From IMG/VR virus record IMGVR_UViG_3300006145_000006, positions 2,480-66,479 of that record: 64,000 bases of DNA, one strand, 5' to 3'. Shown piece after piece: positions 23,422 to 49,526 of this stretch. Each line of letters opens with the position of its first letter. The first letter of the stretch is position 1. Below the pieces are notes generated by a model. It was not told the DNA's origin. It ran no database searches and was given only the letters and a program-made list of their open reading frames with translations. This stretch comes from a virus (lineage: Duplodnaviria > Heunggongvirae > Uroviricota > Caudoviricetes). The position numbers and the translations under genes were made by a program.

Positions 23422-24588
23422 CTAACCGTTTGCTATGCTTTTGTCTGGAGAGCCCAACACGGAGTCCAAAATTTGAGCGGGGACAATTTTTGCCTCGGCC
23501 AGCAAACCGCCGTAGTATTCATCTGTAGTGGCGTAGCTTTCATGGCCCAACCAGTTTTGGACTGACTGCATGGTGGCTCCGTTGGAGAGAAGCAGAACGG
23601 CGTTGGTGTGCCTGAGATCATGGAAGCGGATCACACGCAAGCTGTTTTTTCGCAGGAACTTTGGGAAGTTCCAGGAGATATAGCCCGGGGTAATGAGGTT
23701 TCCGATCTTGTCCACACAAACAAAGTTTTCCCATTTGGTATTATAGCTCTCACCGCACAAAAGGCGTTGTTCCATCTGCGCTATCTTCCAATGTCGAAGA
23801 ACTCTACACTGTTCATCGGTCAGAGGGAATATCCGTTCCCCAGCCTTGGACTTTGGATGATCCCGGTAACTGTACTGACTGGAAGTCCCTTCCTGCACAA
23901 TGACGCCGGTGATCGACATGGTCTTCCTGGCGAAGTCAATATCCTTCCAGCGTAGTCCTGTGGCCTCACCACGACGCAAGCCAAACCAACAGGCCAGATA
24001 GACGGGGCGTTCCAGTTTTGTACCCACAGTGGCACTCAAAAGCGCCTGGGATTCCTCGGCGGTATAAAAGCTACCTTGAAATTTTTTGACTTTTGGGAGG
24101 ATGACTCGCTCGGCCGGATTACTTGCCACCACACCTAAACGAACAGCGTCCTTCAGAGCGGAATAGATAGCGGCTTGGTAGTGGCTGATAGTATTGGCTG
24201 ATACTCCGTCCTTTGTCTGCTTGTAGCGGTAGAAGCTCTCAATTTCGGCTACTCCGCAGTCTTGAAGGGCAATGCCACATTCGTCAAAATAGGGGGAAAT
24301 GACATTATCTATCATTTTCCTGTAGCTTCGGTACGTACTATCCTCAATACTGGGCTTCTTTCTTTCCAGCCAATCCTTCAGAAATGCAGCAAAAGACATT
24401 TCCTTGTAGTTTGGACATATTTTCTGCTTCCATTCAGCTAAAGTTTGCTCTTTTACCGCTTCTCCCGCTCGTTTTCCGTATTTGATTGGTAAGTCCGTGG
24501 GAATCCACTTCTGCTTCCTCTTGGTGCCTTGTTTCCAATTCAAGACAACATATACGGTATCGTTTTTCATTTGCAGGCTTGCTGTCAA
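23422..24588 (-). CDS. int: tyrosine integrase (phage integrase family)
   Basis: C-terminal catalytic R...HDLRHT...LGHESYATTDEYY signature. N-terminal SAM-like DNA-binding domain. Confidence 0.9.
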   Translation of the reverse strand: MTASLQMKNDTVYVVLNWKQGTKRKQKWIPTDLPIKYGKRAGEAVKEQTLAEWKQKICPNYKEMSFAAFLKDWLERKKPSIEDSTYRSYRKMIDNVISPYFDECGIALQDCGVAEIESFYRYKQTKDGVSANTISHYQAAIYSALKDAVRLGVVASNPAERVILPKVKKFQGSFYTAEESQALLSATVGTKLERPVYLACWFGLRRGEATGLRWKDIDFARKTMSITGVIVQEGTSSQYSYRDHPKSKAGERIFPLTDEQCRVLRHWKIAQMEQRLLCGESYNTKWENFVCVDKIGNLITPGYISWNFPKFLRKNSLRVIRFHDLRHTNAVLLLSNGATMQSVQNWLGHESYATTDEYYGGLLAEAKIVPAQILDSVLGSPDKSIANG

Positions 24589-24921: not shown

Positions 24922-25122
24922 TTAAATAGAAAAGGTATCTTCAAACATTTCGCTCATGGTTTCAGCATAGAAGTAATCCACTTCTTCGTTTGTTGCACAA
25001 TCCATGCACACAAATTCCTCTTCGATATAATATGCTTTATCGTAATCGTACAATTCCGTTCCGCAACGAGAACACCTTCCATATTCGTCATCAGAATGGA
25101 TGTTATTGTACCCATATAACAT
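24922..25122 (-). CDS. small zinc-ribbon protein downstream of nrdD
   Basis: 66 aa with CSRCG...CMDC. Confidence 0.45.
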   Translation of the reverse strand: MLYGYNNIHSDDEYGRCSRCGTELYDYDKAYYIEEEFVCMDCATNEEVDYFYAETMSEMFEDTFSI

Positions 25123-27299
25123 TATAAGTGAAGCACCCGCTCCTTAATTTCCTGTACACGGCCTTGGTTCCAGTCGTTTGTGCCGATATATCCACAGGTT
25201 CTTCGCGCCACGTTCATCTTATCCTTGTCCCGGTTGCCGCAGTTGGGGCACTGCCACACCAGCTTGCCGTTATCGTCTTCCACGGCTTCGATCTCACCGT
25301 CCCAGCCACAGATCTGGCAGTAGTCGCTCTTTGTATTGAGCTCGGCGTACATGATGTTGTCGTAGATAAACCGGATGACGCTAAGGACGGCCTGGATATT
25401 GTCCTGCATATTCGGGACCTCTATATAACTGATGGCCCCGCCGGGACTGAGCGCCTGGAACTGCGCCTCAAACGCCAGCTTGGAGAATGCGTCTATCTCC
25501 TCTGTCACATGGACGTGGTAGGAATTGGTGATGTAGTTCTTGTCGGTCACGCCCTCGATAACGCCGAACCGCTTCTTGAGGCACTTGGCAAACTTGTAGG
25601 TGGTGGACTCGATAGGCGTTCCATAGAGGCTATAGTCAATATTTTCTGCCGACTTCCACCGGGCGCACTTATCGTTCATGTACTGCATGACCGCAAGCGC
25701 AAATTCCTTGCCACGCTCCGATGTATGGCTCTCCCCCGTCATGGCCTTGACACACTCATACAGCCCGGCATAGCCCAGGGAAATGGTGGAGTACCCGCCG
25801 TAGAGCAGCCTATCAATAGGCTCTCCTTTTTGCAAGCGGGCCAACGCCCCGTGCTGCCAGTGGATAGGAGACACATCGGACAAAGTTCCCTTCAGTCGCT
25901 CGTGGCGGATGCGCAACGCCCGGTGACACAGCTCCAGTCGCTCGTCAAAGATACGCCAGAAGGTATCGAAGTCCCCGTGAGCAGAGAGGCCAACGTCGGG
26001 GAGGTTGATGGTGACCACACCCTGGTTAAAGCGACCGTAGTACTTGTGCTCGCCCGGAACGCAGTTTCCAGCGTTGGCAATGTTGCCCACACCGGTCTCG
26101 GTAAAGCGGTCGGGGGTGAGGAAGGAGCGGCAACCCATGCATGTGTAAACATCGCCTTTCAGATCCCTCATGACCTTTGCAGAGATGTAGTCGGGGACCA
26201 TTCGCTTGGCGGTACACTTGGCCGCCAGCTCCGTCAGGTAGAAATACGGTGCCCCGTCGTTTACGTTGTCATCATCCAACACATAGATGAGTTTTGGGAA
26301 GGCCGGCGTCACCCACGCGCTGGTCTCATTTTTTACGCCCTTGATGCGCTGACTCAAGACCTCCTCGATAATAATGGCAAGGTCTCTCTTTTCTTGCTCG
26401 TTCTTGGCTTCGCCAAGGTTCATATACACGGTGATAAAGGGAGCCTGACCGTTGGTGGTCATCAAAGTGACCACCTGATATTGGATGGTCTGTACCCCGC
26501 GCTTGACCTCCGCTCTCAAGCGGCGTTCCACAGTGGCATCTCTGATATCCCCATAATCCACGTCATATGTTCCGTGCGCAAGATTGAGTTCGCAATCAAC
26601 CTCCTGACGGATCTTCTGGCGAGACACATTGACAAACGGGGCCAAGTGAGTCAAAGAGATGGACTGCCCGCCGTACTGGTTGGAGGCCACCTGGGCGATG
26701 ATCTGAGTGGCGATGTTGCAGGCGGTGGAGAAGCTGTGGGGCCGCTCGATCATGGTGCCGGTGATAACGGTGCCGTTTTGGAGCATGTCCTCCAAATTGA
26801 CAAGACAACAGTTGATCGTGTGGTGGATGAAGTAATCTCCGTCGTGGAAGTGGATGACACCCTGCTCATGCGCCTGCCGGATGTCATCTGGGAGCAGGGA
26901 CTTTTCTGTGATGTATCTGGAGACCTCTCCGGCTACATAGTCACGCTGTGTAGAGGCGATCACCGGGTTTTTGTTTGAGTTCTCCTTGTTCGCTTCTTCG
27001 CTCTTCCCGTCCACGATTGTCATGACCCTCTGGATCAGCGCATCCTCCTCGCGGTAGTTTGTTCGCGTCTGGCGGTAGCGGATATATACCTTGGCAAGCT
27101 CATAGGCATCATGAGCCAGCAGCTCGTTCTCCACCATATCCTGGATATCCTCCACAGACACGGCATAACCCAACGATGCGCACTTGGTCTCAATGCTGTC
27201 GGCAATTTGCAGGATGATTTCCTCTGACACTCTGTTGTCCTGGTCAACATCAGAGCACGCCCCCCGGACAGCCGCGATGATTTTGTCCTTGCGGAACAC
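25122..27299 (-). CDS. nrdD: anaerobic ribonucleoside-triphosphate reductase (class III RNR) NrdD
   Basis: C-terminal glycyl-radical motif RRTCGYIG and Zn ribbon CQICG...CPNCG; 725 aa. Confidence 0.9.
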   Translation of the reverse strand: MFRKDKIIAAVRGACSDVDQDNRVSEEIILQIADSIETKCASLGYAVSVEDIQDMVENELLAHDAYELAKVYIRYRQTRTNYREEDALIQRVMTIVDGKSEEANKENSNKNPVIASTQRDYVAGEVSRYITEKSLLPDDIRQAHEQGVIHFHDGDYFIHHTINCCLVNLEDMLQNGTVITGTMIERPHSFSTACNIATQIIAQVASNQYGGQSISLTHLAPFVNVSRQKIRQEVDCELNLAHGTYDVDYGDIRDATVERRLRAEVKRGVQTIQYQVVTLMTTNGQAPFITVYMNLGEAKNEQEKRDLAIIIEEVLSQRIKGVKNETSAWVTPAFPKLIYVLDDDNVNDGAPYFYLTELAAKCTAKRMVPDYISAKVMRDLKGDVYTCMGCRSFLTPDRFTETGVGNIANAGNCVPGEHKYYGRFNQGVVTINLPDVGLSAHGDFDTFWRIFDERLELCHRALRIRHERLKGTLSDVSPIHWQHGALARLQKGEPIDRLLYGGYSTISLGYAGLYECVKAMTGESHTSERGKEFALAVMQYMNDKCARWKSAENIDYSLYGTPIESTTYKFAKCLKKRFGVIEGVTDKNYITNSYHVHVTEEIDAFSKLAFEAQFQALSPGGAISYIEVPNMQDNIQAVLSVIRFIYDNIMYAELNTKSDYCQICGWDGEIEAVEDDNGKLVWQCPNCGNRDKDKMNVARRTCGYIGTNDWNQGRVQEIKERVLHL

Positions 27300-35269: not shown

Positions 35270-36028
35270 TCAGTAATCAGGACAGGGATAGCTGTTATCG
35301 AAAAACCGCAACTCCTCTTCGTCAATGATGACCGGAGTCTTGTTGTAGTAGCACTGAACAAGCAGTTGCTCCACGTCGTTGAGGTATCCAAGCTGCGCCT
35401 TGCAGTCAATCGGGCTCCCATCAAACATTAGGCTGGTGATATGATATGGGACGTTGTCTCCATAACCGCCATACAGCCGGAACGAAATTTCTTTGTCCCC
35501 GGTGGGGTTTGCATCCTTGTCAAAGGCAACCTTGGCCCAGTGTTCATCTGTCGGATCGTAGTATGCAAGGAATTCGTCACCGCTGTGGTGGTCGTCGTAG
35601 TCCATCTCTGAAATGGCATACTTCCGATATGCCTCAAAAATCTCAGACAGCCTGATAGACTCTCGCTTGGTCACGAACAGGCTCTCCAGCATCTCTGTGG
35701 TCTTATTTGCCACATCGTCTCCTGCGTAAGAATTGATGATTTCACGCATCCTCTTCACCATAATGGCGTTATAGCTGGAAAAATCCAAGACACCGACAGC
35801 ATCACTAATCTGTTTCTCAACCTTCTCCTGGATTTCTCGCTTGATTTTGTAGCTGTCTATGGCATCTTTGATTGCAGAAAGCAGAGACTTTTCCACGGTC
35901 TCTTCGATAGCCTTCTGAACCACACCGTCTTCATCGAGTTGCCGGAGCTTTTCCCCAACGATAGCGTCTACGTCAATGTTCAATCTGTTACCTCCATTAA
36001 AACAGTCCCCACTCGGCGAACCTCTCAA
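35270..36028 (-). CDS. hypothetical protein
   Basis: 252-aa ORF downstream of the MetK-like gene. Confidence 0.45.
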   Translation of the reverse strand: MRGSPSGDCFNGGNRLNIDVDAIVGEKLRQLDEDGVVQKAIEETVEKSLLSAIKDAIDSYKIKREIQEKVEKQISDAVGVLDFSSYNAIMVKRMREIINSYAGDDVANKTTEMLESLFVTKRESIRLSEIFEAYRKYAISEMDYDDHHSGDEFLAYYDPTDEHWAKVAFDKDANPTGDKEISFRLYGGYGDNVPYHITSLMFDGSPIDCKAQLGYLNDVEQLLVQCYYNKTPVIIDEEELRFFDNSYPCPDY

Positions 36029-36812
36029 AGCCGCCTACGGACTTGATGTAGTTTTGGGCGATCTCCACGATTTCGGAGTAGGGACGACCATCCACCGTGT
36101 CGTCGCCGATAGCGCAGCACAACTCCACCGGAGAGCCAGTCTCCTGTGCCTTCAGGAAGGCGTAGATATTGACCGACACATCGGCCTTGGAGAGATCCTT
36201 GCCATGGAGACCACCGCCGGTGACGGAGTCCGCCATGTCCGAGCCGAGTTTTCGGTTCGTAGCACCGGTGTCCACGTCCGTTCCTCCTGTCCAGTCGCCC
36301 AGCGGGTTGGCCGTCGCCCCAGGATACTCCGCCATGAGAGCGCCGCTGTCTGCGTTGCTCTGACAAATGATGAGGTGGTCGCCGTCAAGGATGTACTTGC
36401 CGTCCGCGGGGTACTTGGCATAGATGTTCCTGGCGATGTCGGACAGCCTATTCTGTTCCTCAGTCAGCGGCATCCCCTTGAAGATGCCGTTGTCACCGCA
36501 CTTGACTTTACCGAGCTGGTTGTCCGCAAGGTGCTTGTCCTGCGGGACAAGGACAATGTCCGGGATCGTGTGGTCTCCTGTAATTCTGCGAATTGCATCG
36601 TAAATATCGGAGCATTGCAAATCGGCAGAAGTCTCTGCAATCACATGACAGACACCGTGTCCGATCAAGACCTCAACGGCGATTTTCGGATCGTCCTCGC
36701 GCTGGTAGGCCAGGTCAACAATAGCGCCGGCAATCCTGTCTGCCACCTTATCAGGATGGCAGGGGTTTACTTTCTCAATCATACGATCAATCCTCCTGTC
36801 GGCAGCGCCCAC
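35997..36812 (-). CDS. compact S-adenosylmethionine synthetase (MetK)-like protein
   Basis: MetK motifs: CHPDKVADRIAGAIVD (GHPDKIADQISDAVLD), GDNGIFKG (GDQGLMFGYA), GGGLHGKDLSKADVS (GGGAFSGKDPSKVDRS). Only 271 aa. Overlaps the MTase by 34 nt. Confidence 0.65.
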   Translation of the reverse strand: MGAADRRIDRMIEKVNPCHPDKVADRIAGAIVDLAYQREDDPKIAVEVLIGHGVCHVIAETSADLQCSDIYDAIRRITGDHTIPDIVLVPQDKHLADNQLGKVKCGDNGIFKGMPLTEEQNRLSDIARNIYAKYPADGKYILDGDHLIICQSNADSGALMAEYPGATANPLGDWTGGTDVDTGATNRKLGSDMADSVTGGGLHGKDLSKADVSVNIYAFLKAQETGSPVELCCAIGDDTVDGRPYSEIVEIAQNYIKSVGGFERFAEWGLF

Positions 36813-38206
36813 CCGTCCTCCCGGACCTGGAACGCATCGCCAAGCTGAATTGTATTAGGGTAGTTCTCCATCGTGGTTTTGATGGCGTACTTGTCGATCT
36901 CCGTGGCGTAGTACTTGGTGACATTGGCTCCCAGCTTGTCCAGAGCGATATGGCCACAGCTCATTCCATCGTACATAGACAGCACCTCGATGGGGTCTGC
37001 GTCAATACCGGGCACATAGGACAGAATGTGGGAGATGACGTCACACGTCCACCCATTCCCCAGCATTTTGTAGGCTTGTGTGGGACTCACCGGGAAGATA
37101 TAGGTCTCCGGCACGGTCTGGAGCCGCATACACTCCAATACGGTCAGTTTGCGGATGATGTAGTAGCCATCGGCCAGCTTGATGGGATACTGCTTGTCCT
37201 TAATTGTGATAAGGCCGTCTTTCACCTCGTAAACAGGATGGGTCTTACCATCCCAGGACTCGCAAACCAACCGACTTTGGTGCCCACCGATGACAGCATT
37301 AGATTTCTCGTCACTGCGGATCTCCCAGCACTGGTTCCGCTCATGACCGCCTCTGCGAGCTGCACCACACGGCACGGCATAAAGCCCTGTCTTGGCCCCA
37401 ACGCCACCGCCCTGACCGCAGATGGTCACGCTCTTACCGTCAGGAGAGTACACACGATACTGCTGGCTGTCGAAATTCTTATTTGCTGAGTTATTCTCGA
37501 TAGTTCCAATACGGATCGGCTCAGCCACACAGGTCTTGCGGTCTACGGTGTTGCCCACCATGTTGCGGATACCGTCCTTATAATATGTAGCCCGGAGGCA
37601 TTGAGCTTTGCCGTCTGCGGTGACATTGACTGGCTCGGCCACCATGTTTCTCTGGTGCCGTTTTACGCAATCCTCCGGTGTAGCAAATCCGCATCTGGTA
37701 GATAGTGCATACGCTTTCCCGTCCTCAGTCGTTCCTACAGGCTCTGCCGCCATAAGTCTTGAATAAGACCGTTGCTTCTTGGGGTTAAACACTCCTGCGG
37801 TCTTGTAGTAGTGGGCATCTAAGGTGTATGCTTTCTCGTTCCAGGTTGTGCCGCTCTCCAGCACATCCCGAAGTAGTATACCTCTATCCTCCGGTTGCTC
37901 TACGCTGGGGATATTTGTCCAGTAAAGACGCTGGCGGTTTTGTGCGGACACCTTCGCCGAATTGATAAGGATGGGTTCTACTCCAAGTTCCTTGGTGATC
38001 TGCTCCCTGATTGCGGGAGCCATACTTTTGTTGTTCTCGTACAGAAAATAATCTGGCTGATACTTCTCCTTGGCGATTCGATAGTTCTTGAACAACTCCC
38101 AGCCGATGCCGGATGGTTCAGTTTCACGATCTTTGGTCTGTGCTATCGACCAATGTGTGCAGGGGCTTCCACCCATTAACAGCTTGATTATATGTATTCC
38201 TCCCAC
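36779..38206 (-). CDS. DNA (cytosine-5)-methyltransferase with circularly permuted motif order (IV-X then I-III)
   Basis: N-terminus LLMGGSPCTHWS (PC motif IV), then ENN (VI), variable region, LECMRLQTVPETY...YKMLGNGWTCDVISHIL (IX/X). The extreme C-terminus is VLSMYDGMSCGHIALDKLG...YYATEIDKYA...NYPNT (motifs I-III). GTG start with no SD. Confidence 0.75.
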   Translation of the reverse strand: MGGIHIIKLLMGGSPCTHWSIAQTKDRETEPSGIGWELFKNYRIAKEKYQPDYFLYENNKSMAPAIREQITKELGVEPILINSAKVSAQNRQRLYWTNIPSVEQPEDRGILLRDVLESGTTWNEKAYTLDAHYYKTAGVFNPKKQRSYSRLMAAEPVGTTEDGKAYALSTRCGFATPEDCVKRHQRNMVAEPVNVTADGKAQCLRATYYKDGIRNMVGNTVDRKTCVAEPIRIGTIENNSANKNFDSQQYRVYSPDGKSVTICGQGGGVGAKTGLYAVPCGAARRGGHERNQCWEIRSDEKSNAVIGGHQSRLVCESWDGKTHPVYEVKDGLITIKDKQYPIKLADGYYIIRKLTVLECMRLQTVPETYIFPVSPTQAYKMLGNGWTCDVISHILSYVPGIDADPIEVLSMYDGMSCGHIALDKLGANVTKYYATEIDKYAIKTTMENYPNTIQLGDAFQVREDGWALPTGGLIV

Positions 38207-38288
38207 GTCTGGGAGGTGTCCGGACTTTAATGGCCAACCTCACTGTCAAATTTGTAAAGTCAATAAAATAAGAATTTTATGTTGAATT

Positions 38289-38510
38289 TTGGCGAAAAGC
38301 GTGTATACTAAATATTACCTCCATGGTTCTATCTTAGAGCTGGGAGGCGATCGTGTGTCTATTGTACCCGTACTAGCAGATTATGCGACACTTATCATGT
38401 TTGGTGGTGTTGTTATTCCGTGGGCTATAAAGAAAGTCGTCATATGGATTTCTCAGATTGTGGACGAAAGTCGCAAGAAGAAAAATCCAGGCGATGGCTC
38501 TCCTGAATAG
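38289..38510 (+). CDS. small membrane protein (opposite strand; weak signals)
   Basis: TTG start; one TM helix. Confidence 0.3.
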   Translation: MAKSVYTKYYLHGSILELGGDRVSIVPVLADYATLIMFGGVVIPWAIKKVVIWISQIVDESRKKKNPGDGSPE

Positions 38511-38624
38511 TACACGGGAGGAAAGGAGGCTGGTCCGGCTTATCGACGAACGGCGCCTTCACATGGAGGGAGAGCTTTCCAGCTCGGGTGGCCTGCCGAT
38601 AAAATGCGGCAGGCCACTTTTTAT

Positions 38625-38909: not shown

Positions 38910-39596
38910 TTACCATGCCAATAATGCATTTCGAACTTTGTCCGGCAATCGATACTCAAGTTCATATTCCGCAATGGAACTACGGATATAATTTCTTTTT
39001 GCGGTTTCATGAGCAATTGCCGCTTCCTCAGCACTATCAAAAGTACCCAAATAATTGCGGTTAAACTCAACTACATATTTGTTTGAAGTTCTTGTTCTAT
39101 GGACACCGCACGGAAGATCAGCGTCAACGGACCTCTCCTTGCTCATAAAAATCATGTTAAATCGTTGGGGAATGAGGATACATTTTTCGGGAGAGTACAC
39201 TTTGTTCCCTTTCACAAGTATGTCTTTGTCAATATGGAGCCTGCCTTCGCATGGATACCAATTATCGTTATACCATCTTGCAAATGCTTGATAATTGAAC
39301 CACTCTTTACAGACCGTGCAGATGTGATAATATGTGCGGTATCTATCTCGTTCTCTTGGACTATAACAACGGTCAAGGATGCTATCCCAGGTGTCATAGG
39401 CGTCTGTGAGTTTTCCGTCCACTCGCGTCTTATAAGGGCCTTCTCCTAAATATCCAACACCACGCACCGTGATATCATATGGGTTTCTTACAGACCCCCG
39501 TTTAAAATTTTGATATGTGGTGCGAACAACCACGCCATGTTCATCGAGAAAACGAACATCTATATCTCTATTGCCACGAAAGCCTACAATCTTCAT
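38910..39596 (-). CDS. HNH homing endonuclease with AP2-type DNA-binding domain (start MKIVGFRG)
   Basis: HNH_3-like H-N-H region (RLHIDKD...NL) and AP2 (KYVVEFNRNYLGTFDSAEEAAIAHETAKRNYI). Confidence 0.65.
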   Translation of the reverse strand: MKIVGFRGNRDIDVRFLDEHGVVVRTTYQNFKRGSVRNPYDITVRGVGYLGEGPYKTRVDGKLTDAYDTWDSILDRCYSPRERDRYRTYYHICTVCKEWFNYQAFARWYNDNWYPCEGRLHIDKDILVKGNKVYSPEKCILIPQRFNMIFMSKERSVDADLPCGVHRTRTSNKYVVEFNRNYLGTFDSAEEAAIAHETAKRNYIRSSIAEYELEYRLPDKVRNALLAW

Positions 39597-39643
39597 CTCC
39601 GTTCCTTTACTATTCTTGTTCGTCTCTCCAATCGCATCTTTGC

Positions 39644-40042
39644 TCATCGAGTACTTTCGTCCACCTTTTTCAAGTCTCCGGTCCAGAACAACCACTTCGG
39701 CACGGTCGGATCCTCTGCCAAACACACAAGTCCAGAGTTTCCCTTTCGAGCCTTGTCATACTCTACGGTAAATGTGCGACCAGCATTGCTCTCACAGAAC
39801 TCTCGGTATTCTAGCCGTCTGTCCTGCCAGCCCGGGTGCCCCTTGATTCTCTCTATATCGAGCTGAACCTTATCTTCGGCCTGAAGCGTTGGCTGTGAGT
39901 CTTGAGCCTCCTTGAGCTTGATAACCGTTTGAACGTCCTCTTTGGACATTCCATTCTTGCGAAGGCGTGAGGATAAATCTCTGCGTTGCTGTCTGTTCAA
40001 TCTCGATCCTCCGATACCTGAAAGTTCTTCACATGGCTCCAA
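39644..40042 (-). CDS. hypothetical protein
   Basis: 132-aa ORF. Confidence 0.4.
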   Translation of the reverse strand: MEPCEELSGIGGSRLNRQQRRDLSSRLRKNGMSKEDVQTVIKLKEAQDSQPTLQAEDKVQLDIERIKGHPGWQDRRLEYREFCESNAGRTFTVEYDKARKGNSGLVCLAEDPTVPKWLFWTGDLKKVDESTR

Positions 40043-40741: not shown

Positions 40742-41218
40742 TTACTGGGTAACCTCCGCCTGATCCGGACTACGGAACACGACTATCATACTGGGGAATG
40801 GTGCCGCATCCCCCGCCTCGCCGTTGGTTTCAAACCGCAGACGGCCACGAAGAAATCGAATTTCAACGCCAGGCTTCTTGTATATGTAGTCATGAAAGCT
40901 GGCTCGGTCAGTTCGGGCCGGGATAAGGAGCACCACGGTGGTTCCGTTCTTGCGAGACTCATCGTAGCATTTCTTGGTCCACACGCCAGTTTCCTTGTTG
41001 CCATACGGAGGATTGCAAAACACGGTCTCTCCACCCCAGTTGTGGGAAAGCCCATCAGTCTGGGCCGTATAGTACCTGTCGCATTTATGGTTTGTATCGC
41101 TTGCGGCAGCGTCAAGCGTGAAATGGAATTCATTGTCTAACTGGTTATATAGGCTCTGCGGAGTCTCCCAGTCGTTCTTGTCGCTGCTGAACATTACTCT
41201 TGCCGTCAAATTATTCAT
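40742..41218 (-). CDS. phage Dam-like DNA N6-adenine methyltransferase (NPPY)
   Basis: WETPQSLYNQLDNEFHFTLDAAAS...FCNPPYG matches the phage N-6-adenine MTase family. Confidence 0.75.
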   Translation of the reverse strand: MNNLTARVMFSSDKNDWETPQSLYNQLDNEFHFTLDAAASDTNHKCDRYYTAQTDGLSHNWGGETVFCNPPYGNKETGVWTKKCYDESRKNGTTVVLLIPARTDRASFHDYIYKKPGVEIRFLRGRLRFETNGEAGDAAPFPSMIVVFRSPDQAEVTQ

Positions 41219-41658: not shown

Positions 41659-42306
41659 CTATGTCACACCGCCTCCAAGCGCTTTCTTATATCCATTATT
41701 GACCCACCACAAGATTCTTCGCCAACGCTTCTCATTAAAAAACTGTTGTTTGCGATACCATTCAGACACATCATACTGCCTTTTTGAGCTATTACATTGT
41801 ACACATGCTGGAACACAATTCTCTATACCATCGCTTCCAAACGCATCGACGTGATCTCTGTGTAGCCTTTGTCCAAACATCTTAATATGCTCTATTTCTG
41901 ATATGCCGCAATACGCACATGACCTATCAAATTCATCTAATACCATTTGATATTGTTTTTCAGAAATGTGATGATCATGATGATTCTTATAGTACTCTCT
42001 CAGCCTGTCTGGGTTATCTCTTCTCCACTGAGTCATATATCCAGACCCGTTACGCTTCCTGTAATATGGACGCCTACGCTCCACAATACGATCGCGATTT
42101 ATATGCTGATATCTCTTATCCATTGCTTTCTTTTCTGCTGGGTGACTATGCACCCATTCTATTGTTTTCCCTCTCAAACATCGCTTGCATTGTGAAGTAA
42201 ATCCGAGTTCTGGTTTTTGTTTATTCTTGTAGTAAAAATTTTCATATGTGTTTGGATATGCGTTTCCGCAATTAGAACACCTTTTTAGCTCTGCGCCCGA
42301 ATCCAT
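41659..42306 (-). CDS. HNH endonuclease (Zn-finger rich)
   Basis: HRDHVDAFGSDGIENCVPACVQCNSSK HNH motif plus several CxxC pairs. Confidence 0.7.
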   Translation of the reverse strand: MDSGAELKRCSNCGNAYPNTYENFYYKNKQKPELGFTSQCKRCLRGKTIEWVHSHPAEKKAMDKRYQHINRDRIVERRRPYYRKRNGSGYMTQWRRDNPDRLREYYKNHHDHHISEKQYQMVLDEFDRSCAYCGISEIEHIKMFGQRLHRDHVDAFGSDGIENCVPACVQCNSSKRQYDVSEWYRKQQFFNEKRWRRILWWVNNGYKKALGGGVT

Positions 42307-44151: not shown

Positions 44152-44544
44152 CTAACAGTTCTCCCAGCAGTAGTCCACAAACTGGTCCCAGTTCATGGCG
44201 AGCTGCTCATAGACATCGATTTTCACCATTTTGTCTCGCTCCTCATGGTACGGCCACGGGGCGAGCTGAATCTCCCACTCACACTTGCTCCAGAAGCGGT
44301 ACATCATCTCACGGTTGATCTCAGCAGCAAAGTCCCGCTTCTCTGTGAATCGCTTCTTGGTCTTTTTAAGGAAGTCCTTCATACCGGACAGCACATTGTA
44401 AGGCTCGATTTTGTTGGAAGCGTAGTTGCGGTAGTACACATACCAGCACAGTTCCTTTTGTGATTGGTCACACCACCATTTCGTAGCGGTACAGATACCA
44501 GTAACCGCTCTTATTCTTTTGAACGTCGCTCGCATAGATGACAT
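44152..44544 (-). CDS. hypothetical protein
   Basis: 130 aa. Confidence 0.4.
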   Translation of the reverse strand: MSSMRATFKRIRAVTGICTATKWWCDQSQKELCWYVYYRNYASNKIEPYNVLSGMKDFLKKTKKRFTEKRDFAAEINREMMYRFWSKCEWEIQLAPWPYHEERDKMVKIDVYEQLAMNWDQFVDYCWENC

Positions 44545-47500
44545 CGTTTTCTTTCACAGGTTGTCGGTCATACAGGTTTGAGCGGAGTGTCAGACGGGAA
44601 CGTTTCCCGGATCCGATAGACCTTGTAAATAGAGCGTATGCCCACACGCCGCCATTATCTTTGCTCTTGAGCGGCACACAATCCTCTATATACAGCTTCC
44701 TTCGGTCCTCCTCCCTGTTGGTCGTCAGCTCTATGTAGCCCAGGATTTCCTTCTGGTTCTGCATTTTCACCTTGTAGCTGGCATCAGGGAGATTCAAACT
44801 CTTTACCTCATCCTCCAGGGCATGAAGCAGACCGTCCATGTCGGTGATGGTGTAGGACTTTACCTCATTCCCCTTTGCATTCTTATCGGTAGCATACTCC
44901 CGGAGGATTTCCTCCACTCTTGAGCCGGCCACATTTTCCTTCTTGATGGTCTTGGCCTTTCCCTGCTTGAACATGTCAAACAGACTGAGGATCCTGGATA
45001 ACTCCACACAGTTCCCAAACGACGCAAAGTAATCAATCAGGATGAGCGGCTTGACCTTGGCAGCCTTAATACTCATGGCATCAAGATCCCGAAGGGCATC
45101 CACGAAATAGGTGCGGTGGTTCTGCCCAGCCTTGTGAAGCTGGTCGCACACCGCCTTGCCGTAGCCTTTAATCGATGAAGTTCCCTTCGAGATGACCCCG
45201 GCATCCTTGTCATAGGTATAGTCAGACATGGAAAACTCGAACCGCGGTGGTGTGATTTGAATACCATAAACCTTAGCAAGCTCCGTACCGCCCGTGATAT
45301 CAGAGTCGTTCTTTGCGTGGTTCAGGTATGTCGTAATAAACTCATACGGATAGTAACATCTGAGCCAAGCGCATATATACCCAATAAGGCAGTAGGCTAT
45401 TGAGTGGTTATACCCAAACTGGTAGCTGGCACTGTCCTCAAGGATCTGGATAAATTCCTTGGCTTCCTGCTCTGCGACCTCTCTTGGCTGGCTTGATTTG
45501 TCGCAATATCCATTCAAGATATCGGGAAGTGCCCTCTCCAGGCGGTCTTTGTCTTTACGTCCAATTGCCCGACGTACATTGTCCGCCTCCGACCCGGACA
45601 ATCCACAAATTTGTTGAAGGAACTTGATGGTGTCCTCCTGGTAGATCAGGTATCCGTTGTTGTCCTTCAATAGTTCATCGATCAGAGGAGATGGGTTGTG
45701 GTGCGGAAGGCGGGCAATGAGGTCATTTCGATAGGAGGTTCCGGATGGGCGGATGCAGGCCGTTACCAAAGACATGTCGAAGATGGACTTTGTCCCGAAG
45801 TCCTTGAGCAGCTTAAAAGCAAAATCGCCTTCCATTTGGAAAATTCCCACCGGGGATCGCATCATGTCTTGCCAGACCTTCTGGTCATCAAATTCTATCT
45901 CATGGGTCTTTGGGTATGGGATGCCGGCAAGCTCGCAGGTGTCCCGAATGATCCCAATGTTGTTCAGTACCAGCAGGTCAAACTTGACCAGAGATACCTC
46001 ATGGATCTCTTCCATGTCGATGTTGATGACCAGCTCCCCGTCCTTCCAAAAGCAGCCATAGTTATCCGGGAGCGTGACCGGGCTGACAACCATCCCGGCG
46101 GCATGAACGCTTTGTGAGACTTTGGTGCCAAGGATCCCATCGTAGTAATAGAAAATGTCCTCATGATCCCGCCTCGCCTGCTCTTGGTCAGAGGCAAATT
46201 CCTTTTTCACACGCTCGCAGACCTTGACGCTGTATGGGTTTGCAGGATCAATTTTGTCTGCTCTTGGATTACCGTGCTCTCTTTCCCAGCGGTTACGAAG
46301 CCCCATGCAGATGACCTCAATGGCGTTGGTGTCAGCGGCCGTCCCCCATGTCGGGGCGCGGGCAGTATAATCCTGGCCAAATCGTTTAATGAGATATTTG
46401 AAAATCTTTGGGCGGTCAGTATCAATGACATCTACGTCAATGTCTCCGACCTCTTTCCGGTCCTCGTTTGCAAACCGGGAGAACACTGTCCCCCACCGCT
46501 CCGGGTCGAGGTCAATAATGTCTGTGACATAGGCCACGCGGGAACCGCCAACAGAACCGCGGGCCGGGCCTATAGGAATGTTGTTATCCCAACACCAGCT
46601 AATGAGTTCCGACATACACAGGATGTAACCGGACATATCAATCTTCTCGAAAACCCGCAGCTCCTCTGGAAGGGCGGCTTCAAATCCCGCCCGCTCGCTT
46701 TCTGGGATGATTTGTTTGTCCAACTTCTCCTGGAGCTTTTTGTATGTGACCTCGGTTAGTTTTGCACGGTCAGCCTCGCTACTGCCGTATAGCTTTGGAT
46801 ACTTGAGCGACATATCAAGATCAAAGTCCTCTACGGAGTCTGCAAGCACATTTGTGTTCTGGATTGCCTCCATCCACAGCTCCTCTGGGATAGCGTCCTG
46901 CTGGCGGAAGGCATCTACCAGCTCGTCGTAGCTTTTATAGGTCAGGTCAAAGCTGTCCTCGTCGCCGTAGGACTGCTTTTTTGCGTCCATCAGAATACTG
47001 CGGCACTCAGCTTTATAGCTGTTCAGACTGTGGGTGTCTGTCCCGGCGATGAGCGGCTTGCCATACTTTTCAGACAGCACAGCCAGGTAACGATTAAAAG
47101 CGATTTGGTCTGGATGGTTATGCGGCTGAATCTCAAGGTAGTCGTACCGCATGACCAGTTTCTCATACCACGGGTCATCCAAAGGCAGTTTGTTGAGCGG
47201 TGAGGCAAGACAGGCACTGGTTGTGATCACATGGTCTGACAGCGCAAGAAATTCCTCAAAGGAGATACGGTTTTTGTAGTACATGTGCTCCTCATCGGTA
47301 GAGGTCGAAATGGCCTGGTTGATCTCCCGCACTCCCTGCTCGTCCTTTGCGATTAGGATGGTGTGGTAGTTGTCCCGCACCTTCTTAGGTTCTCCCGTTT
47401 CCGGGTCTGGCTGAAGGAGAGATTTTGTCAGGTAGCACTCCACTCCGAATAGGAAGCGAATTCCCTTTTTGTCACAGTACATCTTCTTGCGGACCCACTG

Positions 47501-47662
47501 CTTAGTGTTGCCATGCTCGGTACAGGCGATTGCCTTTTGTCCTAACTCTACGGCTCTATCCACATATCGCTCAAAATCTGTGCAACTATCCAATAGGGAA
47601 ATGTCACTATGGACATGGATCGCAACGTAGTTATCCGGCGTCTGATTTTTTGATTTTCCCAT
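44468..47662 (-). CDS. DNA polymerase III alpha subunit (DnaE/PolC-like, PHP domain); likely start M59 of the ORF
   Basis: PHP motif VAIHVHSDISLLDSC...ACTEHGN; Pol III alpha core. Start chosen at MGKSKNQ (SD GAGGAAG) to avoid a 200-nt overlap with the primase. Confidence 0.85.
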   Translation of the reverse strand: MGKSKNQTPDNYVAIHVHSDISLLDSCTDFERYVDRAVELGQKAIACTEHGNTKQWVRKKMYCDKKGIRFLFGVECYLTKSLLQPDPETGEPKKVRDNYHTILIAKDEQGVREINQAISTSTDEEHMYYKNRISFEEFLALSDHVITTSACLASPLNKLPLDDPWYEKLVMRYDYLEIQPHNHPDQIAFNRYLAVLSEKYGKPLIAGTDTHSLNSYKAECRSILMDAKKQSYGDEDSFDLTYKSYDELVDAFRQQDAIPEELWMEAIQNTNVLADSVEDFDLDMSLKYPKLYGSSEADRAKLTEVTYKKLQEKLDKQIIPESERAGFEAALPEELRVFEKIDMSGYILCMSELISWCWDNNIPIGPARGSVGGSRVAYVTDIIDLDPERWGTVFSRFANEDRKEVGDIDVDVIDTDRPKIFKYLIKRFGQDYTARAPTWGTAADTNAIEVICMGLRNRWEREHGNPRADKIDPANPYSVKVCERVKKEFASDQEQARRDHEDIFYYYDGILGTKVSQSVHAAGMVVSPVTLPDNYGCFWKDGELVINIDMEEIHEVSLVKFDLLVLNNIGIIRDTCELAGIPYPKTHEIEFDDQKVWQDMMRSPVGIFQMEGDFAFKLLKDFGTKSIFDMSLVTACIRPSGTSYRNDLIARLPHHNPSPLIDELLKDNNGYLIYQEDTIKFLQQICGLSGSEADNVRRAIGRKDKDRLERALPDILNGYCDKSSQPREVAEQEAKEFIQILEDSASYQFGYNHSIAYCLIGYICAWLRCYYPYEFITTYLNHAKNDSDITGGTELAKVYGIQITPPRFEFSMSDYTYDKDAGVISKGTSSIKGYGKAVCDQLHKAGQNHRTYFVDALRDLDAMSIKAAKVKPLILIDYFASFGNCVELSRILSLFDMFKQGKAKTIKKENVAGSRVEEILREYATDKNAKGNEVKSYTITDMDGLLHALEDEVKSLNLPDASYKVKMQNQKEILGYIELTTNREEDRRKLYIEDCVPLKSKDNGGVWAYALFTRSIGSGKRSRLTLRSNLYDRQPVKENDVIYASDVQKNKSGYWYLYRYEMVV

Positions 47663-49526
47663 ACACTTCCTCGTCCGCGGCACGCTCCTCGGCAAGCTGT
47701 CTTGGCAGCGCCAGCGGGTTGTCGCTGTAGTCGTTTCTGTCCCAGGAGAATTTCCTGTCATATTCCGCCATATCACAGAAGAAACGGCGTGATAAGGAGT
47801 CGTAATATAGCCCCTCGTCAATGTTCTGCCGCCCAAACATACGGTCCTTGATGATCGTGGCGATCACATCGTACTTGAGAAGTCTCTGGCGACGCTCTGA
47901 AAACCGTGCGCTGTTATCCCGTTCCTCATCCGTGATACGGCGAAGGCCGATGGTGCGGTGAGCGAGATTAACGATGTTGCTGGTTCCTGCGATGTCGTAG
48001 ATCCCGACGTTCGTGCTGGCATCCATCTTCCGCGGATGGCAGACCAGGACCACCGCCGCCTGATATTTCTTTGCGAACTCAATGAGCCGCTTAATGGTGA
48101 TGGTCTGGCTCCTCAGCTCCTCCTCGGTCTGTTCGGTGTCGATGCACATGAAGTTGTCAAGGATGAGGCATCGCACTCCATATTTCCTTACAGCATCCGT
48201 CATGGACTCTATGAGGCCGTCAAGGGTGTTATCATAGTCATCCCGGTAGATATACCACTGCCCCTTGTAAGTTGTATTGATTGCCCCAATGGTAGCGGAG
48301 GAGATTTTCTTATAGGGGTTTCCTTTACGGGAGATAGCATCTTCGATGTTCCTCGGGCCGGCGAATATGTAGTTGAACCAGCTTTTCTCAACGCCGTTAG
48401 GGAGTTCACCTGAAAACAGCCATGACCGGATCCCGTTGTCAATGGCATTACACATGAGCTGCGTCAGAAGGCTGCTCTTCCCTGCCCCTGGCTGGCCGCT
48501 GATAATAGTAAGCGTCCCAAAGAAAAGGCGCATCAGCTCTCCGTCCAGGTTTTTCAGCCCAAAGGTCACACCGTCCACGTCTTCATACTCCGTTGGGCTG
48601 ACCTCCGATAGGTCGATGACAGACGGAACAGGGGTGTCCGCAGCGTTGGCGATGATCTCAGCAACCTTTTCTCTCCCGTAGTAAAATAAGGTTTCGTTGA
48701 CATCCTTGATTGACACTTTCTTGCCATCCTCAGCCTCGTAAAGTTCAGGGCAACTTGCGATCTTACACCGCCAGGAGCCAAGACGCGGGACTACCTCCTT
48801 GACAAATTTGTTGCCTGCCTGGTCATTATCCGGTGTCAAGATGATCTCGTTGAACTGCTCCAGAAAGTCCCAGCATTCTTCGATCCAGTGGGTGTTGCCG
48901 TCCCCTAGCGGGATGCTGACCGCGTTTTGGATACCGGACTCGATGAGTGCGGCACAGTCCAGTTCGCCACAGCAAATCACAAGGGGTTGGAGCGGGTTGA
49001 TGCGATTCATGTTAAACAGCAGCGGCGTAGTATCCGCTCCTTGCTGGCACCAAACCTTGTTTTCTCCCTTCCTCACCCTGCGACTTGGCCTGTACTTCAC
49101 CATAGTCAACACGTCGTTCAGGTCGTAATAGTTGAAAACTAGGTTCCCTTCCTTATCCTGTCGGATATCCAGGTAGTCAGCGGTATCTTGGCTGATTTTC
49201 CTTGCCTTCATGTATTTGTACGCCTTTGATTTGTCTTCACACTCTACAGGCTTTGGGTAGCGGTACTGTCTGCGGGTCTGCACCCGATGTTCCCCAAAGC
49301 TGTGCTGGATCCCAGCCGTTTCAAAGAGCTTCTCTGTAGCCTCGATGAAGGTTGCGTTGCGGCCTTTCATGTAGGCGTCAATAAAATCGGCATTTGCTTG
49401 GCATCCAAAACAGTGGCATTCATAGGTTTTGGGGTTATAAATGAATGACGGTGTATCTTCCTCATGGAAGGGGCAAAGGCAACGCTGGCGGGTCTCATCG
49501 TAATCCTCCACCCCAAGGAACTCCAT
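47631..49526 (-). CDS. bifunctional primase-helicase (DnaG-like CHC2 zinc finger/toprim + DnaB-like helicase)
   Basis: CPFHEEDTPSF...CHCFGC zinc finger; Walker A GQPGAGKSSLL in the C-terminal half. Confidence 0.85.
   Translation of the reverse strand: MEFLGVEDYDETRQRCLCPFHEEDTPSFIYNPKTYECHCFGCQANADFIDAYMKGRNATFIEATEKLFETAGIQHSFGEHRVQTRRQYRYPKPVECEDKSKAYKYMKARKISQDTADYLDIRQDKEGNLVFNYYDLNDVLTMVKYRPSRRVRKGENKVWCQQGADTTPLLFNMNRINPLQPLVICCGELDCAALIESGIQNAVSIPLGDGNTHWIEECWDFLEQFNEIILTPDNDQAGNKFVKEVVPRLGSWRCKIASCPELYEAEDGKKVSIKDVNETLFYYGREKVAEIIANAADTPVPSVIDLSEVSPTEYEDVDGVTFGLKNLDGELMRLFFGTLTIISGQPGAGKSSLLTQLMCNAIDNGIRSWLFSGELPNGVEKSWFNYIFAGPRNIEDAISRKGNPYKKISSATIGAINTTYKGQWYIYRDDYDNTLDGLIESMTDAVRKYGVRCLILDNFMCIDTEQTEEELRSQTITIKRLIEFAKKYQAAVVLVCHPRKMDASTNVGIYDIAGTSNIVNLAHRTIGLRRITDEERDNSARFSERRQRLLKYDVIATIIKDRMFGRQNIDEGLYYDSLSRRFFCDMAEYDRKFSWDRNDYSDNPLALPRQLAEERAADEEVYGKIKKSDAG

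Follow-up and report, generated by a model that had tools for sequence, protein, structure and literature searches.

A gene on the minus strand of the 64-kb stretch of phage DNA analysed here (the window) very probably encodes a C5-cytosine DNA methyltransferase (MTase) that is functional as a single chain and has a circularly permuted Rossmann-type catalytic domain, for which we infer both catalysis and intramolecular assembly from sequence. The permutation itself is real and is shared by well over 100 relatives in gut phages. Counted from the listed GTG, the protein has 475 amino acids, and its motifs run IV–VIII, variable region, IX–X and I–III, which departs from the canonical order of I to X (Table 1). 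Motifs IV, VI, VIII, I–III and X, together with the Pfam score, place the putative enzyme in the C5-cytosine DNA MTase superfamily. In the arrangement that we propose, the old C terminus (the motif X helix) would lead through a linker of about 10 residues into the old N terminus (strand beta1, motif I), and the new termini come from a break in the loop that leads from motif III to strand beta4; the resulting order is a catalytic half (IV–VIII), a recognition region, IX–X and a SAM-binding half (I–III). The terminal segments would pack side by side, with beta4 beside beta1, and rebuild an ordinary active site, in which Cys16 would attack C6 of the flipped-out cytosine, Glu57 would protonate N3, and motifs I–III and X would hold SAM.

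The first-pass annotation had reported a permuted motif order within one ORF, and this is confirmed by Pfam and by alignment to solved structures. PF00145 (C-5 cytosine DNA methylase), the sole family detected in a Pfam scan of the protein, matches in three separate stretches (E = 5e-24, 85.8 bits against a cut-off of 22), and the whole-length NCBIfam dcm model TIGR00675 falls under its cut-off (74.2 against 100.65 bits), as expected for a re-ordered chain. Residues 396–460 align to DNMT3A 7–72 (motifs I–III), residues 8–106 to DNMT3A 85–188 (IV–VIII) and residues 337–396 to DNMT3A 228–286 (IX–X, with 352–395 also aligned to M.HhaI 272–315). The alignment to plant DRM2 is unbroken over residues 373–459, which means that the X-to-I junction is contiguous, as in DRM. 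The motif strings quoted earlier were found at residues 12–20 (GGSPCTHWS), 56–59 (YENN), 361–390 (RLQTVPETY...GNGWTCDV) and 409–452 (LSMYDGMSCGHIALDKLG...ATEID...NYPNT). P15 and C16 (the motif IV Pro-Cys nucleophile, aligned to the PC loop of DNMT3A), E57 (YENN) and Q89, R91 and R93 (QNRQR, all aligned to DNMT3A) are invariant in alignments A1 and A2. The SAM-binding residues are also present (YDGMSCG at 412–418, E436, D457 and the motif X GNGW at 383–386), and across alignments of 18–62 homologues the catalytic and SAM-binding residues are all invariant or nearly so.

Table 1. Features of the MTase gene and its surroundings, in window coordinates
Feature	Position	Strand	Details and basis
Circularly permuted C5-cytosine DNA methyltransferase ORF	36779..38206	-	Stop codon 36779-36781; Pfam PF00145 and thousands of full-length homologues
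Catalytic subdomain, residues 7-110	37877..38188	-	Strand beta4 and motif IV (GGSPC, Cys16), motif VI (YENN, Glu57), motif VIII (QNRQR, 89-93); aligns to DNMT3A 85-188
Variable region, residues about 118-316	37259..37855	-	Tandem short recognition-type modules: EKAYTLDAHYYK; AEPVG..GKAYALSTRCG; AEPVN..GKAQCLRATYYKDG; AEPIRIG..YRVYSPDGKSVTICGQGGG; ..DEKSNAVIGGHQSRLV
M.HhaI-like target-recognition module, residues 248-279 (QQYRVYSPDGKSVTICGQGGGVGAKTGLYAVP)	37370..37465	-	Aligns to M.HhaI 237-272 (QGERIYSTRGIAITLSAYGGGIFAKTGGYLV)
Pre-IX block and motifs IX-X, residues 317-396	37019..37258	-	..KQYPIKLADGYYIIRKLTVLECMRLQTVPETY..TQAYKMLGNGWTCDVISHIL; aligns to M.HhaI 272-315 and DNMT3A 228-286
New linker, residues 397-406 (SYVPGIDADP)	36989..37018	-	Motif X helix to strand beta1; comparison with canonical relatives and tandem fusion P0279
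C-terminal SAM-binding segment, residues 407-466	36809..36988	-	Motif I VLSMYDGMSCG, motif II ATEID (Glu436), motif III QLGDAFQVR (Asp457); aligns to DNMT3A 7-72
Hairpin CCTCCCA-GACG-TGGGAGG	38199..38216	-	3' arm is the Shine–Dalgarno GGGAGG (38199-38204); contains the listed GTG
Candidate non-canonical starts	38186..38191	-	ATA 38189-38191 (7 nt after GGAGG) or ATC 38186-38188 (10 nt after GGAGG); position of the ATG in homologues
SAM-synthetase-like gene, 261 aa	35997..36782	-	Downstream; Pfam PF00438, E = 7e-11

Purifying selection on the C-terminal I–III segment is strong. Alignment A3 (62 sequences) has 20 fully invariant columns, every one of them in this segment, whose dN/dS is 0.029 against the closest relative, with a median of 0.078 over 25 pairs; for the pre-IX/IX–X block the median is 0.10 (50 comparisons). 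These values bear on whether the gene is a decaying relic, in which a 5'-truncated MTase has become fused to the 5' end of a 3'-truncated one and I–III is the leftover of an inactive protein. Fusions and truncated fusions do occur in the same clade, and the window gene lacks a canonical start codon, but the invariant columns and low dN/dS of I–III (about 0.03–0.08), an architecture retained by 70 or more clusters at 50% identity and a plain ATG start at 44 of 69 permuted loci make such decay highly improbable.

A first AF2 run on 50 close homologues had a mean pLDDT of 47.7 and Foldseek matches only about 105 residues long; in model 2, for which the input alignment held 62 more diverse sequences, the N- and C-terminal core segments are confident (pLDDT mostly 55–93 in the catalytic subdomain and about 77–94 in the SAM-binding segment), and the variable region, below 50, is left unmodelled. 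The modelled core is DRM2-like: both terminal segments lie in one compact unit, 205 residues of which can be superposed on one DRM2 chain. Activity restricted to an obligate dimer or oligomer, in which I–III of one chain completes IV–X of another by domain swapping, is unlikely in view of this compact core, of the one gene copy in the window and of the link between the X helix and beta1, which at only about 10 residues is like that of the cis-folding DRM2. We favour a chain that would complete its own active site.

Relatives of the protein are numerous. The identical 475-residue protein (P0001) is present in a public collection as 3 member sequences on 2 contigs, and more than 8,000 homologue matches, a lower bound, were retrieved with each of the window protein and the protein of phage nd4 (44% identical). 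In bacterial genomes, 67 of the 78 loci have the complete permuted order; most of the 67 belong to Oscillospiraceae and other gut Clostridia, and the isolates with permuted loci include Oscillibacter sp. 1-3, Anaerotruncus colihominis, Acutalibacter caecimuris and Robinsoniella peoriensis. Among the best 150 cluster representatives at 50% identity, 72 are complete and permuted, 47 are fragments with the X-to-I junction and 25 are canonical, so that about 119 of the 150 have the permuted order. The earlier description of permuted C5-MTases as rare holds for the literature only and fails for sequence databases, where the family is large. A megablast search of 50,697 phage records with the 15 kb surrounding the gene returned no match; this collection does not include the phage itself.

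We looked for signs that the gene order was produced by a misjoin or a collapsed tandem duplication in the window contig. True tandem copies of such MTase genes exist at L050 and L040 and could be mis-assembled, but the identical protein is found on other contigs, in independent assemblies; close relatives on contigs of 11–29 kb have gene order in common with the window; the complete order recurs at the 67 bacterial-genome loci, isolate genomes among them; and each gene has its own start, Shine–Dalgarno sequence and stop. An assembly artefact is, on this evidence, barely credible. The first-pass annotation had also allowed for an ordinary split enzyme with motifs I–III in a separate upstream ORF. 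A tblastn search of the whole window with canonical and permuted relatives found MTase-like sequence at one locus only and no other MTase fragments, and at 69 permuted loci the reading frame opens 0–2 codons ahead of the K in KLLxGGSPC. A split gene, an intron and a homing-endonuclease insertion, which the HNH/AP2 gene upstream had brought to mind, are rejected, as there is no second MTase fragment in the window and the homologues share the start position.

Relatives of canonical order locate the break. The enzymes of Vibrio phage ICP1 (ADX88273), Proteus phage Saba (QEG09380) and Vibrio phage 1.133.O (AUR89851) and of a Ruminococcus contig (L075) resemble the window enzyme in their motifs, including the GG(S/F)PC..WS loop and ENx/QNRxR, and such canonical phage and prophage relatives have the same kind of modular variable region. 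Their I–III segments are about 50% identical to that of the window enzyme (N termini of the three phage proteins against residues 406–473), and their pre-IX/IX–X blocks are up to 86% identical (the IX–X block of L075). They differ in that I–III is N-terminal and is followed by a loop of 15–20 residues to beta4, whereas the window enzyme is open at this loop and has X connected to I. From ICP1 and L075, the break maps to the loop that connects motif III to strand beta4, and the re-joining of C terminus to N terminus that had been proposed is borne out by the corresponding sequences of ICP1 (QLGDVTKWQEWGIDWASIDLVTGGFPC) and L075 (HGNVFQADFTQYKGVDLIVGGSPC). The linker at residues 397–406 occupies the site of the C and N termini of the canonical enzyme. 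The claim that a III/IV breakpoint differs from those of M.BssHII and DRM also holds.

The permuted enzymes most likely descend from phage enzymes in the same DNMT3-like clade that had the canonical order, by a route in which an in-frame tandem fusion would have been followed by loss of the outer I–III and IV–X parts (permutation by duplication). This model predicts tandem and N-truncated fusion forms, and metagenomes contain both: tandem in-frame fusions P0279 (..THLFSFIESEKTNTVDTGFSVLSLFDG..) and P0285 (a cluster on 5 contigs), and N-truncated fusions P0291 and P0335 (4 contigs). On single versus multiple origin, neighbour-joining trees of the re-ordered, concatenated segments and then of single segments gave no clean bipartition; the segments are short and the genes mosaic, as in the window IX–X block, which is 86% identical to canonical L075 and 64% to permuted nd4. 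Motif I carries the SMYDG signature in 55 of 71 segments from permuted proteins and in none of 26 from canonical proteins, a hint, short of proof, that the permutation had one main origin.

For the three amino-methyltransferase classes (alpha, beta and gamma), circular permutation is the accepted explanation, and C5 enzymes had been regarded as almost uniform. In DRM enzymes the break lies between motifs V and VI, which gives the order VI–X, I–V. Plant DRM2 and NtDRM (PDB 7l4c, 7l4f and 4onj) are like the window enzyme in the X-to-I–III junction only; the window enzyme keeps IV–V with VI–VIII at its N terminus, with motif IV before VI, and is encoded by a phage, whereas DRM enzymes are eukaryotic, contain UBA domains and depend on RNA-directed DNA methylation for guidance. 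M.BssHII, M.Alw26I, M2.Eco31I, M.Esp3I and M2.BsaI (zeta class, Type H or topology F) are, like the window enzyme, natural prokaryotic permuted C5-MTases with a direct X-to-I junction. In the papers searched, this BssHII/Eco31I type is the only prokaryotic C5 permutation on record, and a III/IV break is recorded from engineered enzymes only (PMC5944983; bioRxiv 10.1101/2023.12.13.571470; PMC7544214). Its new termini lie in the variable region, IX–X come before I–VIII and both structural domains stay intact (PMC5944983), whereas the break in the window enzyme falls within the Rossmann domain, after motif III and ahead of beta4, and its IX–X are internal; at the 69 permuted loci the N terminus opens 0–2 codons ahead of beta4 and motif IV. 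A III/IV N terminus is shared with permutants that differ in being laboratory-made: engineered cp122M.MpeI (Type C permutants, Albert et al. 2018), with its new N terminus at or near the III/IV boundary, is weakly active (PMC5944983), and evolved cpM.HaeIII variants with an N terminus at or near the same boundary are reported to keep measurable activity (Peisajovich et al. 2006, cited in PMC5944983). The linear order of the window enzyme is also that of the class-beta amino-methyltransferases (M.PvuII, M.RsrI, M.MboIIA, CcrM and EcoP15I Mod), namely motif IV, recognition domain, motif I (PMC7544214). Class-beta enzymes differ in having (D/N/S)PP(Y/F/W) as motif IV and in acting on an exocyclic nitrogen, whereas the window enzyme has SPC and C5-type motifs VI and VIII; the likeness is a convergence of topology, not membership.

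The openly searchable methyltransferase literature contains no description of a natural C5 enzyme with a III/IV break. The 2018 survey of REBASE found variable-region permutants only and no natural enzyme of Type C topology, and concluded that nature favours routes that leave the two domains intact (PMC5944983); a 2025 classification of topologies lists just two for m5C enzymes (bioRxiv 10.1101/2023.12.13.571470). The family may equally plausibly be, or not be, a third natural C5-MTase topology (class-beta order, cut in the Rossmann domain) that is unrecorded in the searchable literature and abundant in phages of gut Clostridia, and that forms, with its canonical, tandem-fused and half-truncated relatives, a natural permutation-by-duplication series. 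The intact-domain generalization is contradicted by a large family that is under selection and has its break between motif III and beta4; such a family also indicates that the beta order can be reached with C5 chemistry. With canonical, fused, half-truncated and permuted forms side by side, the evolutionary pathway becomes testable in natural sequences; permutation by duplication is otherwise backed in the searched literature by one directed-evolution study. Topology-based annotation tools can under-score such genes, as the whole-length NCBIfam model did here. The permuted enzymes probably have a large part in shaping gut-phage methylomes, and their cassette-like modules and separated catalytic and SAM-binding halves could serve as scaffolds for split or engineered methyltransferases.

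The start of the gene had been annotated as a GTG without a Shine–Dalgarno sequence, with an uncertain N terminus. The first statement stands, because the listed GTG overlaps the Shine–Dalgarno sequence itself; the second no longer does, as the N terminus is now fixed to within a few residues. No canonical start codon lies behind the Shine–Dalgarno sequence of the window gene. Homologues read ATG at the candidate position (M-I-K-L-L or M-K-L-L), and the start codon is probably ATA or ATC, behind a Shine–Dalgarno sequence held in a conserved hairpin. This hairpin recurs without a base change in L083 and also in L086, where the protein is just 60% identical and the upstream flank is unrelated, and L028 has a similar hairpin followed by ATG. 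The 7-bp stem appears in the predicted RNA fold, and the whole leader has no extra stability over shuffled sequence (z = -0.53); the 7-bp hairpin is the one leader structure with support, which comes from conservation. Such a hairpin would lower translation, which, like the lack of a canonical start codon, counts against the reading of the gene as encoding a functional enzyme. A promoter scan upstream of the MTase on the minus strand found no sigma-70-like site.

Five TL-type modules are visible in the variable region, which phrog_17284 matches in three stretches. Homologues that are 75–90% identical over aligned positions differ by whole modules, which have been inserted, deleted or exchanged as cassettes. 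The match of one module to M.HhaI is weak (E = 0.04), and the ten lowest E-values of that PDB search all belong to M.HhaI entries. The tandem modules and the one weak M.HhaI match suggest that the enzyme may have several DNA specificities. Bacillus phages SPR, phi3T, rho11s and H2 reportedly carry C5-MTases that the Trautner laboratory proved to be multispecific. Those enzymes are likewise phage-borne orphans with tandem short recognition modules exchangeable as cassettes; they differ in having the canonical motif order and a multispecificity that is proven, where that of the window enzyme is putative.

The likely role of the MTase is self-methylation of the phage against restriction: it would methylate several sequence contexts in the phage's own DNA through its cassette-like modules and so evade host restriction, with cofactor SAM supplied by the SAM-synthetase-like gene downstream. 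The MTase stop codon overlaps the ATG of that gene (ATGA), with GGAGG 9 nt upstream of this ATG, and the two genes therefore look translationally coupled. Bacterial and eukaryotic MetK structures match just residues 3–65 of the SAM-synthetase-like protein. That the permuted enzyme acts on RNA, or transfers a non-methyl group from a cofactor made by this truncated MetK-like neighbour, is distinctly unlikely, as its recognition modules and IX–X are of DNA-methyltransferase type (the M.HhaI-like module included), the neighbour is missing in most family members and there is no sequence sign of a changed cofactor pocket. The two genes are paired at L083–L085 and L061 only, and the pair is absent from the other bacterial-genome loci; linkage to a SAM synthetase as a family trait is ruled out, being limited to the closest relatives and L061. 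Methylation of the phage DNA itself is the function that we favour. Elsewhere in the neighbourhood, a gene for a Dam-like N6-methyltransferase lies near the MTase gene, an HNH/AP2 gene lies upstream of it (38910–39725), and close relatives have a Lar restriction-alleviation gene downstream.

The phage C5-cytosine DNA methyltransferase has the motif order IV–VIII, variable region, IX–X, I–III. Its Pfam match (PF00145, E = 5e-24) is split over three separate stretches, and the ORF scores below the cut-off of the full-length NCBIfam dcm model. Because plant DRM2 aligns in one unbroken piece across residues 373–459, motif X leads straight into motif I. The motif strings quoted in the first-pass annotation were all found where it had placed them, and both its observation and its reading as a permuted C5 enzyme hold. 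P15, C16, E57, Q89, R91 and R93 are invariant catalytic residues in the closer alignments, and all 20 fully invariant columns of a 62-sequence alignment fall within residues 408–466. For the I–III segment, dN/dS is 0.029 in the comparison with the nearest relative (dS 0.89) and 0.078 as the median of 25 pairs whose dS is unsaturated; for the IX–X block it is 0.10. Judged by sequence, the C-terminal I–III segment is functional, and the gene belongs to the C5-methyltransferase superfamily through its predicted chemistry and motifs.

Positions of the methyltransferase gene, its motif segments (residues numbered from the listed GTG) and other features of the window
Feature	Position	Strand	Details
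C5-cytosine DNA methyltransferase ORF	36779-38206	-	475 aa from listed GTG
Motifs IV-VIII	residues 8-106		aligned with DNMT3A 85-188 (solved structures)
Motifs IX-X	residues 337-396		aligned with DNMT3A 228-286
Motifs IX-X	residues 352-395		aligned with M.HhaI 272-315
Motifs I-III	residues 396-460		aligned with DNMT3A 7-72
Conserved hairpin, 7 bp	38199-38216	-	anti-Shine–Dalgarno CCTCCCA pairs with the gene's own GGGAGG
SAM-synthetase-like gene	35997-36782	-	261 aa; PF00438; phrog_1569 (PHROGs: unknown function)
73-aa ORF	38289-38510	+	hydrophobic stretch; opposite strand, between methyltransferase and upstream genes
Promoter-like site of 73-aa ORF	38282-38309
Strong 13-bp terminator hairpin of 73-aa ORF	38586-38619
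HNH endonuclease	38910-39725	-	AP2-like DNA-binding domain
Dam-family N6-adenine methyltransferase	40742-41218	-	PF05869, E = 3e-28; 2.5 kb upstream of C5 gene
Second HNH endonuclease	41659-42306	-
Radical-SAM protein	11981-13132	+	among tail genes
Integrase	23422-24588	-
Anaerobic ribonucleotide reductase (NrdD)	25122-27299	-
Pol III alpha-type polymerase	44468-47836	-
Primase-helicase	47631-49526	-

The permuted gene is neither an artefact nor a split gene, the two alternatives raised by the first-pass annotation. A misassembly is excluded: an identical protein is already present in a public protein collection, together with at least 8,000 homologues spanning at least 97% of the query, and segment-wise tblastn found the complete permuted order in 67 of the 78 bacterial loci recovered from a scan of one genome per species. 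Eight further loci are contig-end fragments compatible with this order, and three (L056, L073 and L075) are canonical. The loci belong mostly to Oscillospiraceae and other gut Clostridia, and include the isolates Oscillibacter sp. 1-3, Anaerotruncus colihominis, Acutalibacter caecimuris and Robinsoniella peoriensis. A split enzyme would have motifs I–III in a second ORF; tblastn with canonical and permuted relatives as queries found no such ORF, and no other methyltransferase-like sequence, in the whole window. When a junction segment (residues 340–475) was queried against 1.84 billion cluster representatives, the best 150 comprised complete permuted proteins (72), fragments with the X-to-I junction (47), canonical-order proteins (25), complete tandem fusions (2), N-truncated fusions (2) and short fragments with the I–III segment alone (2). 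In public databases, members go by generic names: WP_016148008.1/UniRef100_R8VX88 (Butyricicoccus pullicaecorum), ‘MAG TPA: Cytosine specific methyltransferase’, ‘hypothetical protein’ (phage nd4) and, at JGI, ‘DNA (cytosine-5)-methyltransferase 3A’.

The breakpoint between motifs III and IV, proposed at first pass, is borne out by comparison with canonical-order relatives. In the cultured Vibrio phages ICP1 and 1.133.O and the Proteus phage Saba, the N-terminal 55–73 residues are 46–51% identical to window residues 406–473, and the remainder is collinear with residues 7–395. The 516-aa canonical enzyme of a Ruminococcus contig (L075) has recognition modules of the same kind and a pre-IX/IX–X block 86% identical to that of the window. 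Compared side by side, the new termini correspond to the canonical loop joining motif III to strand β4 (GDVTKWQEWGIDWASIDLVTGGFPC; GNVFQADFTQYKGVDLIVGGSPC). The permuted protein starts (M)IKLLMGGSPC and ends QLGDAFQVREDGWALPTGGLIV, and SYVPGIDADP bridges the old termini. AF2 models were of mediocre quality, with a mean pLDDT of 47.7 using 50 close homologues and 56.9 (pTM 0.59) using 62 more diverse ones. In the latter model, block means were about 55–93 for residues 1–110, below 50 for 118–310, about 55–71 for 311–390 and about 77–94 for 391–470. Strand β1 is expected to pair with β4 within one chain.

Circular permutation is a familiar theme in methyltransferases. As far as could be established, neither the III/IV breakpoint nor the abundance of the permuted family has been described. 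In REBASE, Albert et al. (2018, PMC5944983) found 27 enzymes with motif X ahead of motif I, every one of them permuted in the variable region, and of the other engineered topologies that are active they remarked that these “do not seem to occur” in nature. The same paper describes cp122M.MpeI, which has its new N-terminus at residue 122 and weak activity, and says that M.HaeIII variants beginning between motifs III and IV match its own Type B or Type C permutants more or less. Woodcock et al. (2020, PMC7544214) refer to “one alternative permutation” of the 5mC motif order; in their definition, class β runs from motif IV through the TRD to motif I. Samokhina and Alexeevski (December 2025 version, bioRxiv 10.1101/2023.12.13.571470) assign m5C enzymes only to topologies C and F. 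The window gene has the motif order of neither canonical C5 enzymes nor the BssHII or DRM groups, and shares with class-β enzymes its topology and nothing else. We found no description of its order in the literature searched, and subscription papers or REBASE notes may already record the family.

Four metagenomic homologues are the forms that a permutation-by-duplication model demands. P0279 (618 aa) and P0285 (962 aa) consist of two complete canonical enzymes fused in frame, the P0285 cluster including a near-identical 971-aa member on 4 contigs, the largest of 212 kb. P0291 and P0335 (the latter on 4 contigs from two sources) join a partial variable region and IX–X to a complete I–X, the layout of a tandem fusion from which the 5′ end has already been lost. 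The M.HaeIII experiments, as summarised in PMC5944983, yielded the same fusion and truncation forms; surviving intermediates are undescribed as far as could be established. At one bacterial locus (L050), two permuted genes stand in tandem as separate units, and each has a start and a stop of its own.

Residues 118–316 form a succession of short modules with one TL-type element each; phrog_17284 matches three times within the variable region, and residues 248–279 are similar to the M.HhaI recognition core (237–272). Among homologues 75–90% identical at aligned positions, entire modules are gained, lost or swapped between nearly identical flanks, and homologue length varies between 431 and 613 aa with no domain added. 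Bacillus phages have multispecific methyltransferases, and the resemblance of the module array to theirs suggests that the window enzyme may have several target sequences. A permuted metagenomic protein (P0361, 425 aa) is without the array, its motif VIII almost abutting the pre-IX block, and has a long, low-complexity C-terminal tail. In three others (P0270, P0287 and P0378) the IX–X block is interrupted by an unrelated insertion, which in P0270, the one sequence that was read, measures about 240 aa and separates motif IX from motif X; the insert may be an intein, an additional domain or the result of mobile-element read-through. Permuted homologues P0015, P0017, P0035 and P0046 have extra C-terminal domains after motif III (a Dam-type methyltransferase, PF02086, in P0046; a PF25680 match in P0017; extensions in P0015 and P0035), and the new C-terminus therefore tolerates fusions.

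Across 69 permuted loci the frame opens 0–2 codons before the K of KLLxGGSPC, and in 44 of these an ATG preceded by a Shine–Dalgarno sequence stands there. The first-pass annotation had considered the listed GTG to lack a Shine–Dalgarno sequence and the N-terminus to be uncertain; this was partly right: the GTG itself overlaps the GGGAGG Shine–Dalgarno sequence that forms the 3′ arm of the hairpin, and the 69 loci place the start near KLL. The window and loci L083–L085 share the start region CCTCCCAGACGTGGGAGGAATACATATAATCAAG, in which ATA stands 7 nt and ATC 10 nt after GGAGG, where the ATG of ATG-ATx-AAG or ATG-AAG is found in other homologues. Locus L086 (protein 60% identical, upstream flank unrelated) has the same hairpin, but ATC and ATT replace ATA and ATC, with the same spacing; L028 has a similar hairpin and then an ordinary ATG. 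The start codon is most likely ATA or ATC, so that the protein would begin M(I)KLLMGGSPC; starting at the internal ATG (MGGSPC) would delete strand β4. The hairpin probably throttles expression, and it may be a translational throttle that acts in combination with a non-canonical start codon.

The phage is temperate and siphovirus-like and carries its own replication genes; nothing near-identical to the window turned up in 50,697 phage records. The stop codon of the C5 gene shares bases with the ATG of the SAM-synthetase-like gene (ATGA), and GGAGG precedes that ATG by 9 nt. The SAM-synthetase-like product resembles MetK in its N-terminal domain only (PDB MetK matches cover residues 3–65) and is far shorter than the matched structures (roughly 380–430 aa). 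With the Dam-like gene and the C5 gene, the phage therefore has at least two DNA methyltransferases, and in close relatives a Lar restriction-alleviation gene lies downstream. The C5 enzyme most likely methylates the phage's own DNA to shield it from host restriction. Both HNH genes, scattered among DNA-modification and replication genes, are probably free-standing homing endonucleases. The closest relative (L083) encodes at 2532–3179 a 215-aa mini C5-methyltransferase-like protein (DLFSG..SPPC..ENP, PF00145); the window lacks this gene and has at its site an HNH gene of equal length.
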